Assembly (NCBI GenBank): GCA_036266715.1
Contig: DATAXS010000006.1
Coordinates: 1,757 to 65,756, forward strand
Length of the DNA: 64,000 bases
From: Minisyncoccota bacterium
GTDB lineage: Bacteria; Patescibacteriota; Minisyncoccia; UBA6257; 2-01-FULL-56-20
Direction of reading: 5' to 3'
In this document: in pieces, positions 7,797 to 56,420 of the stretch
Numbering within the stretch: position 1 is the stretch's first letter
Layout: every line of letters starts with the position of its first letter
Translations under genes and position numbers: made by a program
Notes under the pieces: generated by a model
What the model was told of the DNA's origin: nothing
Databases searched by the model: none
What the model saw: the letters and a program-made list of their open reading frames with translations, nothing else

Positions 7797-8819
7797 TCAA
7801 GCCGCGAGACCGAGAAGATGGTTCATTTCTTTTGCATATGGCAATGGGCCGTCTATAAAAACCGAGACGACGGTCGTCCTGCCGTTCGGACCCACAATTT
7901 CGCTCGAGCGACCCGATTTATACATTTGTGCAATGTGGTTGTTTGTCCCTTGGATGACGAGTCCTGAGGTCCACCCTGCCGGAACGAGGTCGAGATAGAG
8001 TCTGCGGCTCATGATTGCCGCTTCTCTCTTACTGACTCCGGTTATGATGCGCTCAGAAGGGATTTCTTTCGTGTAATTGAATCCCGTTTCTCCAAGTCCC
8101 AAAATCGTTCTGCTTCCCGGGACTTTTTCTTCTTCTTTGTCTGAGGCGATACCCAGAACCTGCACATCTGGCAGGACTTCTCTGAAGTATATGCTCGCGG
8201 CGACGGCCGTGGACGTGGTACCGAGCGCCACAGAAAAGAGGAATCGAAAAGGAATACCGAGGCGATTCACTTCCCGTTCGATATGCGGCAGGGTAAATTC
8301 CCATTGCGCTTCGAGGCCGCCACGGTGAAGATATTGATTCACCTCAAAGTGCCCTTCTTGGTCCGCCATGAGATGCGCATACTCAATGGGAGACTTGCCG
8401 GTCGGAGCGTAAAGAATCTTTGCTCCGGCGAGCGTGAGCTGTTCTTGTTTGCCCTGCGGGGTTGAGGCGTCGATCACGGCGATAAAACCACCACTCTTTG
8501 TTCTCGGATCGACATCGGCCTCGAAGATTCCCTGCAGGAGACCAAAGCCCACACCCGCGTTGCCTGAAGTAGCTCCGATCCACTTTCTACCCTTGAGGTT
8601 TTCGGCCTCAAGGAAGCAGATTCCTGCGGCCGGGATCGTTTTGCCGTTAAAGGACGAAAGTCCTGAAAGCGCCAAAGCGAAGTGGTCAACATTTTTTGCA
8701 ATGGCCGGATCCATTCCTGCCTTCGCCGATTCCGGTAGGCGGATGATTGGAGGGAGGCCATGCTTGAGCATGTCGTAAAGCCTTCTTTGCCTTTCCGGAA
8801 GCTTATTGCGTATGATCAT
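7797..8819 (-). CDS. PLP-dependent enzyme, tryptophan-synthase-beta / cysteine-synthase-like fold type II
   Basis: Gly-rich loop IGATSGNAGVGFG (SGNxG). Overall PALP-like layout. Confidence 0.55.
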   Translation of the reverse strand: MIIRNKLPERQRRLYDMLKHGLPPIIRLPESAKAGMDPAIAKNVDHFALALSGLSSFNGKTIPAAGICFLEAENLKGRKWIGATSGNAGVGFGLLQGIFEADVDPRTKSGGFIAVIDASTPQGKQEQLTLAGAKILYAPTGKSPIEYAHLMADQEGHFEVNQYLHRGGLEAQWEFTLPHIEREVNRLGIPFRFLFSVALGTTSTAVAASIYFREVLPDVQVLGIASDKEEEKVPGSRTILGLGETGFNYTKEIPSERIITGVSKREAAIMSRRLYLDLVPAGWTSGLVIQGTNNHIAQMYKSGRSSEIVGPNGRTTVVSVFIDGPLPYAKEMNHLLGLAA

Positions 8820-52633: not shown

Positions 52634-53494
52634 ATGGAATCGCTTTCTGACAAAAAATTGCGGGAGATGGAGCTCATGGCCACGCGCTTGCGCGAGGACG
52701 TGATCAAAATGGTCTCGCACGCGGGTTCGGGGCACATTGCGGGGCCCTTGGACATGGCGGAAATTTTCACCGCGTTCTATTTTCATATTCTGAACCAGGA
52801 TCCGAAGAAACCGCTGTGGCCTGGCCGTGACCGGCTCGTGTTGTCCAACGGGCACATTGTGCCCATACAGTACGCCGCACTCGCGCATGCGGGCTATTTC
52901 CCGGTGGAAGAATTGAAAACGCTCCGGCAATTGAACACGCGTCTGCAGGGCCACCCGCACCGCGGCGCGCTTCCAGGAATTGAAACCACTTCCGGGCCGC
53001 TCGGATCGGGCATTTCGCAGGCCTTGGGCATTGCGCTCGCGGCCCGCCTTGACCAGAAAAAATGGCGCACGTATTGCCTGACCTCCGATGGCGAGCACGA
53101 AGAGGGCAACACGTGGGAAGCGGTGATGTTCGCCGGCAAAAACCGTTTGAGCAATCTCACGGTCATCGTGGACCGCAACAACATTCAGATAGACGGATTT
53201 ACGGAAAAGATAATGCCGCTTGAACCATTCCGTGCAAAGTACGAATCGTTCAACTGGCACGTGCTGGAGATAGACGGTCATAATTTTGAGGAAATCATCG
53301 CGGCCGTGGCGGAGGCGCGCGCCATCCACGAGCAGCCCACGTGCATAATTGCGCACACGATTCCGGGCAGGGGCGTGGACTTTATGGAAAACGACTATCT
53401 CTGGCACAGCAAGCCATTTAAGCCCGGCGAGGCGGAAAAGGCGCTCGGCGAGCTCCGGACGCTCCGCGGCAAGATAAAATCGGAGCACCAATAA
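52634..53494 (+). CDS. transketolase, N-terminal (TPP-binding) subunit of a split transketolase
   Basis: GSGHIAGPLDMAEIF, SNGHIVPIQYAA and TSDGEHEEGNTWEA are Tkt PP-domain motifs. Confidence 0.85.
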   Translation: MESLSDKKLREMELMATRLREDVIKMVSHAGSGHIAGPLDMAEIFTAFYFHILNQDPKKPLWPGRDRLVLSNGHIVPIQYAALAHAGYFPVEELKTLRQLNTRLQGHPHRGALPGIETTSGPLGSGISQALGIALAARLDQKKWRTYCLTSDGEHEEGNTWEAVMFAGKNRLSNLTVIVDRNNIQIDGFTEKIMPLEPFRAKYESFNWHVLEIDGHNFEEIIAAVAEARAIHEQPTCIIAHTIPGRGVDFMENDYLWHSKPFKPGEAEKALGELRTLRGKIKSEHQ

Positions 53495-55018: not shown

Positions 55019-56008
55019 ATGCTAAACCCCGACGCGAAACTGAATCCAAAGCTGTTTGACGAGGACGTTGAACAGCGCCCCACGCGGGACGGCTACGGCA
55101 ACGGGCTCGTGGCGGCGGGGGAGATGAACGACAACGTGGTCGCGCTCTGCGCGGACCTCACGGAATCCACGCGCACGGAGGCGTTCGCCAAGAAATTTCC
55201 GGAACGCTACTTTGAGCTCGGCGTGGCCGAGCAGAATATGGCGACGGTCGCAGCTGGCCTCGGCGTCACGGGCAAAATTCCTTTCATCGCTTCTTATGCC
55301 ACGTTTTCCCCGGGCAGAAACTGGGAGCAGATTCGGACCACGATCGCCTACAACGATTCCAACGTAAAAGTGGCTGGGCACCACGCGGGCATTTCCGTGG
55401 GACCGGACGGCGCCACGCACCAGGCAACGGAGGATATTGCGATCATGCGCGCGATGCCGAATATGAAAGTGTTCGTGCCGTGTGACGCAGTGGAAGGCGC
55501 AAAGGCCACGCTCGCCGCGGCGCACATCTGGGGCCCGGTGTACCTCCGGTTCCAACGGGAAAAAACGCCCATCATTACCACCGACCTCACGCCCTACACG
55601 CCGGGCAAAGCGGAAGTGTTCTGGCAGTCAAAAAAGTCGGAAGTGCTCATTATTGGCTGCGGAGGATTGATGTATAACGCGCTCGTGGCCGCGCGGGAAC
55701 TGGAAAAAGAAAAGATAGGCACGATCGTTTTGAACGTCCACACCATAAAACCTCTCGACGAAAAGAAAATCGTTGAATTGGCAAAGAAAACAGGCGCGGT
55801 AGTGACCGTGGAAGAGCATCAGGTGGAGGGCGGTCTTGGCGGTGCCGTTGCGGAAGCGCTCGCAAAGCACGCGCCCACGCCAGTTGAATTCATCGGTATG
55901 CAGAACACCTTCGGTGAATCCGGGCCGCCAGACGCGCTCATCAAAAAGTACGGCATGACGGCGGAAGACATTGTGGTGGCGGCGAAGAAAGCCATCAGGC
56001 GCAAATAG
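55019..56008 (+). CDS. transketolase, C-terminal (Pyr and C-terminal domain) subunit
   Basis: FELGVAEQNMATVAAGL...FIASYATFS...GPDGATHQATEDIAIMRAMPNM. Confidence 0.85.
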   Translation: MLNPDAKLNPKLFDEDVEQRPTRDGYGNGLVAAGEMNDNVVALCADLTESTRTEAFAKKFPERYFELGVAEQNMATVAAGLGVTGKIPFIASYATFSPGRNWEQIRTTIAYNDSNVKVAGHHAGISVGPDGATHQATEDIAIMRAMPNMKVFVPCDAVEGAKATLAAAHIWGPVYLRFQREKTPIITTDLTPYTPGKAEVFWQSKKSEVLIIGCGGLMYNALVAARELEKEKIGTIVLNVHTIKPLDEKKIVELAKKTGAVVTVEEHQVEGGLGGAVAEALAKHAPTPVEFIGMQNTFGESGPPDALIKKYGMTAEDIVVAAKKAIRRK

Positions 56009-56060
56009 GTCAAGTAAGATTTTAGAATAATTTAACCATCGATTATGTAATATTGCGGTG

Positions 56061-56129
56061 TGGGGGTGGCGTAGCGCTGAACCTCGACTCACCACCGGGA
56101 GTTCACGGGGTGCAAATCCCCGCACCTCC
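56061..56129 (+). ncRNA. unclassified tRNA-like element: 7-bp acceptor stem with G3:U70 plus T-arm, no canonical D or anticodon arms
   Basis: GGGGGUG(56061-67) pairs with CACCUCC(56122-28), giving G3:U70, with A as discriminator. T-arm is CGGGG-UGCAAAU-CCCCG. The 37 nt between them do not fold into D or anticodon arms. Confidence 0.4.
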
Positions 56130-56138
56130 ACGGGATCC

Positions 56139-56166
56139 CTTGACGGGAGAAGTCCATCTGCTATAA
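56139..56166 (+). promoter_or_regulatory. near-consensus sigma70 promoter
   Basis: TTGACG - 16 nt - TATAAT. Confidence 0.55.
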
Positions 56167-56172
56167 TAGAGG

Positions 56173-56242
56173 CATCGGTGGTGAGTCGGGACCAGCACTA
56201 TGATGGAATTCCCAAAAGACCCGGAAACGGGTCTTTTGTTTT
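56173..56242 (+). ncRNA. candidate ~70-nt small RNA (promoter to intrinsic terminator)
   Basis: Starts ~7 nt after the TATAAT. Ends with a gacccg-gaaa-cgggtc hairpin plus UUUUGUUUUU. Its 5' end ggtggtgagtcg is the exact reverse complement of 56084-56095. Confidence 0.4.
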
Positions 56243-56286
56243 TGTTATCATTATACTGATGATCAAAAAGGTAGGAAAAAAATATA

Positions 56287-56420
56287 TGGTCGTTTCGGAG
56301 AAAACGGGACGTTCATTTGGGACGTACACGACGAAGGCAGAGGCGGAAAAGCGGCTGAGGCAAGTGGAATACTTTAAGCACGCAAAGGGGAAGGCGGCTC
56401 CAAAAAGGAAGCGCGGCTAG
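56287..56420 (+). CDS. small basic protein (44 aa), hypothetical
   Basis: aaggtagg RBS-like sequence 8 nt upstream. MVVSEKTGRSFGTYTTKAEAEKRLRQVEYFKHAKGKAAPKRKRG. Confidence 0.35.

Follow-up and report, generated by a model that had tools for sequence, protein, structure and literature searches.

Transfer-messenger RNA (tmRNA) places alanine identity on a tRNA mimic that does not decode; in its two-piece, permuted form two RNAs are joined by a helix at the place of the anticodon stem, and in jakobid mitochondria it occurs as the tRNA-like domain only. A reduced cloverleaf is found in mascRNA and menRNA (RF01684), which are cut from vertebrate MALAT1 and NEAT1 and consist of a 7-bp acceptor stem, a 3-bp mini D-hairpin, one stem-loop, and a T-arm, with no variable loop. 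Recognition between RNAs is in turn exemplified by IS10 RNA-OUT/RNA-IN, CopA/CopT, and hok/sok, where a YUNR loop meets a single-stranded partner (in IS10 its 5′ end) and pairing spreads down the stem, and by the type VIII toxin-antitoxin systems SdsR/RyeA and CreT/CreA, where one of two non-coding RNAs is able to neutralize the other. In a 64,000-nt stretch of DNA from a Minisyncoccota bacterium (contig DATAXS010000006.1; hereafter the window) we find a locus comparable to each of these: a tRNA-like RNA, termed P1, and a downstream RNA, termed P2, the first part of which is complementary to it. It represents a single copy of a two-RNA module conserved in ultra-small bacteria of the candidate phyla radiation (CPR)/Patescibacteria; the module is apparently undescribed, and a literature search returned no account of the P1-P2 family. 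We put the probability of the core of this reading, a conserved tRNA-shaped RNA that co-evolves and pairs in trans with a partner RNA, at roughly 0.8, while its biological role is far less certain.

The window P1 (Table 1) presents G3:U70 and A73 in a 7-bp acceptor stem, i.e., the identity set of tRNA-Ala. A sequence-only reading of the window had picked out this stem, the discriminator A, and the T-arm, all of which are indeed present, with each coordinate having been given one base too low. It had further held that the middle 37 nt form neither a D- nor an anticodon arm; they do fold, into a mini D-hairpin and a 9-bp stem, and both covary across the family. On the family covariance model the window copy scores 66.3 bits (E = 7e-11) and is a somewhat divergent member, with a loop that is bigger and further from the consensus than those of its relatives.

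Comparison loci, referred to by L-numbers, were collected by searches of uneven success. A first covariance model, based on two sequences, brought up no additional members from 615 kb of CPR loci, two over-specific patterns returned nothing useful, and a loose acceptor/T-arm pattern run on viral contigs was swamped by tRNA-Ala, tmRNA, and mini elements with a tRNA-like domain. The productive metagenome pattern, to which a leader GT and a trailer C[CG]G were added after several design rounds, which biases the set, yielded at least 120 loci; among the matches listed there are about 97 distinct P1 sequences of 67-69 nt, mostly from groundwater and many from 0.1-0.2 μm fractions, nearly all with one architecture; sites in the Hainich aquifer contributed many of the matches. 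In an alignment of 72 P1 sequences 93.4% of the cells are paired as against 77.8% in 500 shuffled controls, and the covariation score of 0.456 (0.165 in shuffles) is matched by none of the 500 and falls to about 0.05-0.12 when the partners are slid by one to three columns. Changes on both sides are seen in 18 of the 29 P1 pairs, the leader-trailer helix included: in acceptor pairs 4-6, in all three pairs of the D-hairpin, in all nine of the stem, and in the outer pair of the T-stem. Conservation and covariation in relatives, whose absence the sequence-only reading had named among the refuting conditions, are therefore strongly in evidence. The family model finds one copy in the window and nothing beyond tandem duplicates in 560 kb of metagenomic flanks, which makes the module low-copy.

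The D-loop and T-loop covary like a tRNA elbow, G going with U in 39 of the 72 sequences and A with G in 29, with four exceptions (in the window, A 56073 of the D-loop and G 56112 of the T-loop). Outside the acceptor stem, a 5-bp leader-trailer helix (GCGGU/ACCGC or GCCGU/ACGGC) extends it to 12 bp and covaries as well, with one pair being GC in 40 sequences and CG in 27 and the outermost pair taking all six standard types. Judged by promoter spacing, this helix begins right where transcription is predicted to start: in 68 of 77 P1 homologs, G1 follows the final T of a -10-like hexamer by 12 nt. No leader-trailer pairing of this kind is found in the tRNA-Asn of the window. In the window P1 itself the leader is 2 nt longer than the family register, only about three leader-trailer pairs are possible, and a consensus promoter scan makes no call at the -10 box; the start would nevertheless be predicted near 56055, at the G of GCGG.

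In its upper half P1 is nearly the same as genuine CPR tRNA-Ala (L335), which scores 42 bits on the P1 model, and shares with it the acceptor stem, T-arm, elbow, a U-turn loop, and overall arm lengths, so that P1 looks like a remodeled tRNA-Ala. The lower half differs: a 3-bp D-hairpin with a 3-4-nt loop and a single bulged 9-bp stem take the place of the standard arms, a 4-bp D-stem with a 7-11-nt loop and a 5-bp anticodon stem with a 7-nt loop; there is no variable loop, and the loop sequence is free within the consensus N-U-Y-R-U-C-A-N, a U-turn (YUNR) motif of the kind at which antisense RNAs classically nucleate. One could still take P1 for a working minimal decoding tRNA that inserts alanine at loop-matching codons, in mistranslation or frameshift suppression, with P2 masking the anticodon. 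Its stacked stem of 4+5 or 7+2 bp is about as long as a D-stem plus an anticodon stem, the elbow contact is kept, the loop positions matching U33 and A38 hardly vary, a canonical 7-nt loop is found in one subfamily, and in a few members ARAGORN reports a "tRNA-???" with a 4-base anticodon. However, the would-be anticodon varies freely among relatives and paralogs and is constrained by P2 alone, position 37 carries a pyrimidine (C in 64 of 72), as decoders very seldom do, loops of 8 nt prevail (9 nt in the window, 13 in L004), and the leader-trailer helix speaks against a free CCA end; we consider a decoding role quite improbable. The earlier statement that P1 is not an ordinary tRNA thus holds. 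In the window ARAGORN and Rfam at gathering thresholds report only the tRNA-Asn, which lies elsewhere, and the Rfam tRNA model (RF00005) has no match on 55950-56350 at the gathering score or at E ≤ 10. In 15 family loci no tRNA match falls on the P1 coordinates, and at P1 no family of Rfam 15 attains its gathering score in any of the loci scanned. The best sub-threshold match is mascRNA (25.4 bits in the window and 29-30 bits in L272, with a gathering score of 42.5), whose reduced cloverleaf P1 shares; mascRNA is eukaryotic and has no partner RNA, and the likeness is one of shape only.

The partner RNA of the window is alignable over its full length with 60 homologous P2 sequences. The near-perfect sigma70 promoter and the transcript of about 70 nt ending in an intrinsic terminator that had been proposed for it are both borne out as signals, the transcript ends being predictions. 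A 12-nt perfect complement, noted earlier, is real (P2 56177-56188 with P1 56085-56096) and forms part of a longer pairing of 14 bp plus 10 bp, in which the second helix contains one A-C mismatch and one G-U pair and is set off by a small internal loop. A third P2 segment, which resembles the P1 5′ arm, has two possible partners, P2 segment 1 and the P1 3′ arm once freed, and in typical members complements 7 nt of this arm without a mismatch (in L283, UAGACUC with GAGUCUA). That such a complement is unlikely to arise by chance, as the sequence-only reading had argued, is supported both within the window, where no non-self partner among 3196 windows of 80 nt pairs better with the P1 core than the P2 site does (-46.7 kcal/mol against a mean of -23.3, sd 5.2), and by compensatory changes in 78 other loci. 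In eleven pairs tested, dimerization is predicted to gain 6-21 kcal/mol over the separate monomers, with the largest gain, -21 kcal/mol, in the window pair.

Across the family, a P1-P2 duplex of -30 kcal/mol or better is found in 78 loci, with a mean energy of -42.4 kcal/mol for cognate pairs as opposed to -21.2 for 5994 non-cognate combinations. The best partner is the cognate one in 59 of the 78 loci, and in the remainder it is beaten only by near-identical relatives. P1 alignment columns 13-43 pair with P2 in 60-72 of the 72 loci, with three to six pair types per column (columns 29-43 for segment 1 and 13-26 for segment 2), and G-U/U-G pairs outnumber single mismatches of the A-C/C-A type by 213 to 21, which indicates selection at the level of RNA, not DNA, on this strand. 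The layout is shared by nearly all loci. The pairing region starts about 45-75 nt after P1, commonly about 60-65 nt; the first 27-30 nt of P2 complement the D-hairpin, the 5′ stem arm, and the loop of P1, and the complementarity begins 1-3 nt from the predicted P2 5′ end. In most of the 78 loci a TTGAC hexamer precedes the pairing region by about 30-36 nt, usually followed by a TATAAT/TATACT-like -10 box, and most aligned P2 homologs end in a terminator. RNAalifold on a MAFFT alignment of P2 gave no consensus structure, the alignment being too gappy, and the P2 fold is thus described from single sequences.

Pairing in trans is most directly seen in L004, one of only two loci among those of 28 close relatives in which nhmmer locates the module. 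There the minus strand encodes P1 and the plus strand P2, behind a TTGACA-16-TACACT promoter of its own, and yet the P1 loop UUGACUCGACACCC and the P2 start GGGUGUCGAGUCA share 16 complementary bases, with changes relative to the window: complementarity is maintained by compensatory change between separately transcribed genes. Likewise, tandem paralogs on one contig (L272, L316, L282) carry different, private loop and partner sequences, each P1 having its own matching P2, and one P1 of L316 is served by two P2 genes, of which one lies upstream of it. These arrangements bear on the alternative raised by the sequence-only reading, namely a single structured RNA (about 190 nt then, 190-230 nt as we would draw it) formed by read-through from P1 into P2 and closed by a cis helix, as a processing signal or cis-regulatory leader. 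P1 has no terminator of its own, making read-through likely, and the minimum free energy fold of the 196-nt region 56055-56250 (z = -5.1) does make use of the long P1-P2 helix. Against this, the two parts lie on opposite strands in L004, P2 precedes its cognate P1 in L272 and L316, a near-consensus internal promoter is conserved, and the downstream genes vary and are often convergent. Of the two options offered earlier, the pair of interacting, side-by-side RNAs therefore stands, whereas one long RNA is not required and has, in our estimate, small odds. Two further roles for P2 were considered and dropped: a tag peptide or micro-open reading frame (frames and stops are not conserved, and the recurrent AG-NUG-AYR start is explained by complementarity to the conserved loop), and an attenuator of the downstream genes, which differ and are often convergent.

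The tandem loci show several layouts in detail. L316 480-1192 (+) holds two P1 and at least three P2 genes with repeated promoters, L272 660-1005 (-) is a P1-P2-P1 array, and L282 7200-7820 (-) has two modules around what looks like a small gatC-like gene. A DnaA-box-like 9-mer (TTATCCACA or the near variant TTTTCCACA) lies beside the P2 -35 hexamer in 23 of the 78 loci (e.g., L256, L262, L274, L277, L299, L315, L341, L357, and L368), about 29-55 nt and mostly 42-55 nt upstream of the pairing region; a rough chance expectation is about 0.07 matches (60 positions, 4 allowed variants, 4^9 9-mers). The window copy has none.

The module's location is patchy: it is absent from the same intergenic spot in close relatives and present elsewhere. 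Moreover, in a subset of loci (Table 1) the whole module lies antisense and in frame inside open reading frames (ORFs) with several unrelated host sequences, which suggests insertions that survive only where the host frame is kept. Together with IS200/RAYT-like genes near nine loci and an inverted-repeat arrangement in nearly all, these observations would also suit a reading in which the DNA is the functional unit, the inverted repeat of the P1 5′ half and the P2 5′ region forming the ends or recombination site of a nonautonomous REPIN/MITE-like element (MITE, miniature inverted-repeat transposable element) moved by IS200/RAYT-type transposases, with the RNA folds incidental. But on the transcribed strand G-U exceeds A-C tenfold; in L004 the segments are direct repeats as DNA and yet complementary as RNAs; conserved promoter signals and terminators flank P2; and the acceptor stem, T-arm, elbow, and leader-trailer helix lie outside the repeat and yet covary as RNA. 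Mobility and RNA function can coexist, and we regard a purely DNA-level element as decidedly unlikely. By eye, the hosts of embedded modules include a giant protein of >2000 aa with a helix-turn-helix-like N-terminus and an apparent GyrA intein linker, and the inserted stretch translates as ...GPAGNRTPE... or ...VEVRGIEPL.... Genes of IS200/RAYT-like Y1 transposases were seen near the module in about nine loci (in L322 about 0.5-1.2 kb upstream of P1 on the opposite strand), and GIY-YIG-like small ORFs and genes for four-helix-bundle proteins of the 23S-IVS type also recur nearby, all identities being judged by eye.

A further option is a reduced, two-piece tmRNA-like rescue RNA, with P1 as the alanine-charged domain and P2 as the remnant of an mRNA-like part held by a duplex resembling the P2 helix of tmRNA. 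P1 does share G3:U70, A73, and the T-arm with tmRNA, and like P1 and P2 the two pieces of permuted tmRNA are joined at the place of the anticodon stem; there is a weak match to the tmRNA_permuted model; domain-only tmRNAs have a precedent in the jakobid mitochondria; and viral contigs contain many elements of roughly 80 nt that consist of a tRNA-like domain only. Yet the match, at 16.9 bits, is far below the gathering score of 47, and ARAGORN is silent on most of the family, its sole "tmRNA" call (L272) being spurious, as it spans two adjacent P1 copies. The P2 RNAs of the window, L004, and L016 have no stop-bearing frame in common, the P2 alignment shows no conserved stop, and P2 comprises about 70 nt, half of which is terminator. 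P1 has a hairpin in place of the GGxUUCGAC D-loop of tmRNA, no GGAC junction before the T-arm, and no pseudoknots; its acceptor, D-strand, and T-arm lie in one piece, a connectivity other than a permutation of tmRNA; the partner has a promoter to itself; and paralogous private pairs coexist in one genome. CPR genomes, in addition, are reported to carry ordinary tmRNA. The resemblance to tmRNA suggested by the sequence-only reading is hence not sustained, and we consider such a rescue RNA very improbable indeed. The viral elements of about 80 nt, from IMG/VR (L090 7633-7712 (-), L119 4745-4824 (-), L146 2218-2297 (+), L179 3544-3623 (+), and also L092, L102, L117, L133, and L186), have a G3:U70 acceptor, a tmRNA-type GAUGGUUUCGAC D-loop, a closed helix-2 hairpin, a GGAC junction, and a T-arm, lack an mRNA-like domain, leave ARAGORN silent, and form a class distinct from the window P1.

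In its geometry the interaction matches the loop-seeded antisense pairs of the IS10 type, with a YUNR loop, extended complementarity from the partner's 5′ end, and a strong antisense promoter. Those pairs, however, are encoded by overlapping genes on opposite strands and act on an mRNA, whereas the P1 and P2 genes are adjacent, non-overlapping, and mostly on the same strand, neither RNA is an mRNA, complementarity is kept by co-evolution, and the stem-loop sits in a tRNA-shaped body. As the best-supported reading, we propose that P1 is a stable, L-shaped derivative of tRNA-Ala that would have kept the top half, reduced the D-arm to a 3-bp hairpin while retaining the D-loop/T-loop contact, and replaced the D- and anticodon stems by one 9-bp helix topped by a U-turn loop of free sequence. 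The 5′ terminus of P2 would seed on this loop, and the helix would then spread down the 5′ arm and through the D-hairpin, over about 27-30 bp in a typical member and over 14 + 10 bp in the window copy, so that the lower half of P1 would have to unfold and the acceptor/T minihelix would stay attached to a long duplex. The consequences of pairing, like its order and kinetics, can be pictured along several lines, among them sequestration, cleavage by RNase III, and a change in stability or activity; P2 would accordingly act as a private switch or antidote for P1, or the two RNAs might titrate each other.

What P1 does when unpaired is a matter of speculation. Alanylation and an action on the translation apparatus are conceivable, charging being favored by the identity elements and by a top half that resembles tRNA-Ala. 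The patchy locations and in-frame insertions, in turn, hint at a selfish, possibly toxin-antitoxin-like module, and by speculative analogy with the type VIII systems, which resemble the P1-P2 pairs in their patchy distribution and privately specific paralogs, it might be an RNA-only cassette. Unlike those systems, the P1-P2 module has no Cas or other protein partner: ORF clustering within 3 kb of 108 loci gave no conserved partner protein, only host ORFs. Stated in full, a protein-free selfish cassette of about 250 bp, serving as an RNA-only addiction or regulatory module, would encode an alanine-tRNA mimic that can engage with translation, through charging, EF-Tu, or the ribosome, and does harm in its unbound state, together with a short-lived private antisense RNA that unfolds it, and would have spread through CPR genomes, tolerated even inside protein-coding genes; we regard this as possible but doubtful.

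Several points weigh against these interpretations. The productive search pattern demanded G1-3, G7, U70-C74, a GGGG/CCCC T-stem, and the flanking GT...C[CG]G, and invariance at these positions therefore proves nothing; G3:U70 is independently attested in only six copies, those of the window, L004, and L016 and the second copies in L272, L316, and L282. With a covarying leader-trailer helix at the predicted start, the mature RNA may keep a closed 12-bp stem and so lack a free CCA end, a point against aminoacylation. The window copy is atypical in its degenerate leader-trailer helix, 9-nt loop, lack of a DnaA-box, and 16-nt promoter spacer, and its P1 has the lowest model score among full members. 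All P1 and P2 transcript ends are predictions, either of the two RNAs could, by its sequence, be the regulator and the other the target, and the toxin-antitoxin proposal, speculative as it is, draws on the circumstantial traits of patchiness, private paralogs, and a strong partner promoter.

A large part of bacterial diversity belongs to the CPR/Patescibacteria, of which almost none have been cultured and from which very few regulatory RNAs are known. P1 adds an abundant, strongly covarying family that Rfam 15 lacks and that tRNA and tmRNA finders overlook, so that CPR annotations miss it or mislabel it as pseudo-tRNA or tmRNA. Its design is an unusual one for a natural RNA, a tRNA body that carries an antisense recognition loop for a dedicated, co-evolving partner, and resembles the artificial "tRNA scaffold" used for stabilizing RNAs. 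If P1 were charged with alanine or entered the ribosome, the module would tie translation to RNA-RNA control, while the DnaA-box at many P2 promoters may tie it to replication status; if selfish, it would be among the smallest addiction-type elements known. Orthogonal loop/partner pairs could furthermore serve as parts for RNA engineering, and the covariance model for annotation.

Table 1. Coordinates of the P1-P2 module and flanking genes in the window, and of ORF-embedded modules in comparison loci.
Feature	Position	Strand	Remarks
Transketolase, N-terminal part	52634-53491		
Transketolase, C-terminal part (tkt-C)	55019-56008		
Putative P1 -10 box TTATGT	56043-56048	+	From family register; weak
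P1 leader GCGGUGU	56055-56061	+	In homologs a 5-nt leader pairs with the trailer
P1, whole (69 nt)	56062-56130	+	Acceptor stem, mini D-hairpin, anticodon-like arm, T-arm
P1 acceptor, 5′ strand GGGGGUG	56062-56068	+	G3 at 56064; pairs with 56123-56129
P1 mini D-hairpin GCG-UAG-CGC	56069-56077	+	3 bp, 3-nt loop; single-sequence fold and family covariation
P1 anticodon-like arm	56078-56105	+	9 bp; fold and family covariation at all nine pairs
Anticodon-like arm, 5′ arm	56078-56086		
Anticodon-like arm, loop ACUCACCAC	56087-56095		9 nt
Anticodon-like arm, 3′ arm	56096-56105		Bulged A
P1 T-arm CGGGG-UGCAAAU-CCCCG	56106-56122	+	
P1 acceptor, 3′ strand CACCUCC	56123-56129	+	U70 at 56127
P1 discriminator A73	56130	+	
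P2 promoter TTGACG-16-TATAAT, sigma70-type	56140-56167	+	11/12 consensus positions; TG before -10
P2 RNA, about 70-72 nt	56175-56248	+	Predicted ends: start 7-9 nt after -10, end at terminator T-tract
P2 segment 1 GGUGGUGAGUCGGG	56177-56190	+	14 bp with P1 56083-56096 (loop and part of 5′ arm)
P2 segment 2, CCAGCACUAUG core	56193-56202	+	10 bp with P1 56070-56079 (D-hairpin region)
P2 segment 3 UGGAAUUCCC	56204-56213	+	Resembles P1 5′ arm; sequence inspection and P2 alignment
P2 intrinsic terminator	56213-56248	+	Stem 56213-56238, T-tract to about 56248
Small basic ORF (53 aa)	56259-56420	+	
Region with ORF-embedded module, L290	6614-12616	+	
Region with ORF-embedded module, L262	8084-11224	+	
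ORF-embedded modules, L327, L347, L348, L337, L370, L301, L254			

In the window the module follows the C-terminal part of a split transketolase and precedes a small ORF, with genes for a PfkB-family kinase and a class II fructose-bisphosphate aldolase also among its neighbors. The closest tkt-C relatives, at most 84% identical, are all metagenome-assembled genomes of CPR/Patescibacteria (Paceibacteria/Parcubacteria). Conservation downstream of tkt-C, where the sequence-only reading had suggested looking for it, is not seen: the module is absent from the junction of tkt-C and the small ORF in the loci of 28 close relatives. The two loci that hold it elsewhere, L004 and L016, have it at different spots of the same gene cluster, in L004 directly after the aldolase gene and in L016 about 4 kb downstream, on the other strand and cut by the locus end. 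The small ORF is of a conserved basic type of 44-53 aa (MIKK.GKKY.VLSEKTGRSFGTYKTKAEAEKRLRQ.E.FKH...), had no Pfam match, also follows directly after tkt-C in L001, L004, and L011, and sits between tkt-C and the PfkB kinase gene in several relatives.

A number of further elements resemble P1 in part. The viral loci L190 and L173 contain P1 look-alikes with no nearby partner and were set aside. L009 8601-8672 (-) and L015 7657-7727 (-) are full-size tRNA-like genes with G3:U70 and a normal D-arm whose anticodon loop (UUUGACA) is of the N-U-U-R-N-C-A type, as in P1, and upstream on the same strand in L009 an 11-mer, CCCGATTGTCA (8760-8770), precedes a terminator and is complementary to the loop and 3′ arm; judging from these likenesses, the two genes may be a related variant or an intermediate form of P1. 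A divergent module is present at L170 569-634 (+), on an IMG/VR contig classed as viral, and at L266 1069-1134 (+), with a P1 of the form GGGCCCG...CGGGUCC; a segment downstream of it shows complementarity to the P1 core in two places, UGGUAAAGAGG and CCAACUUU.

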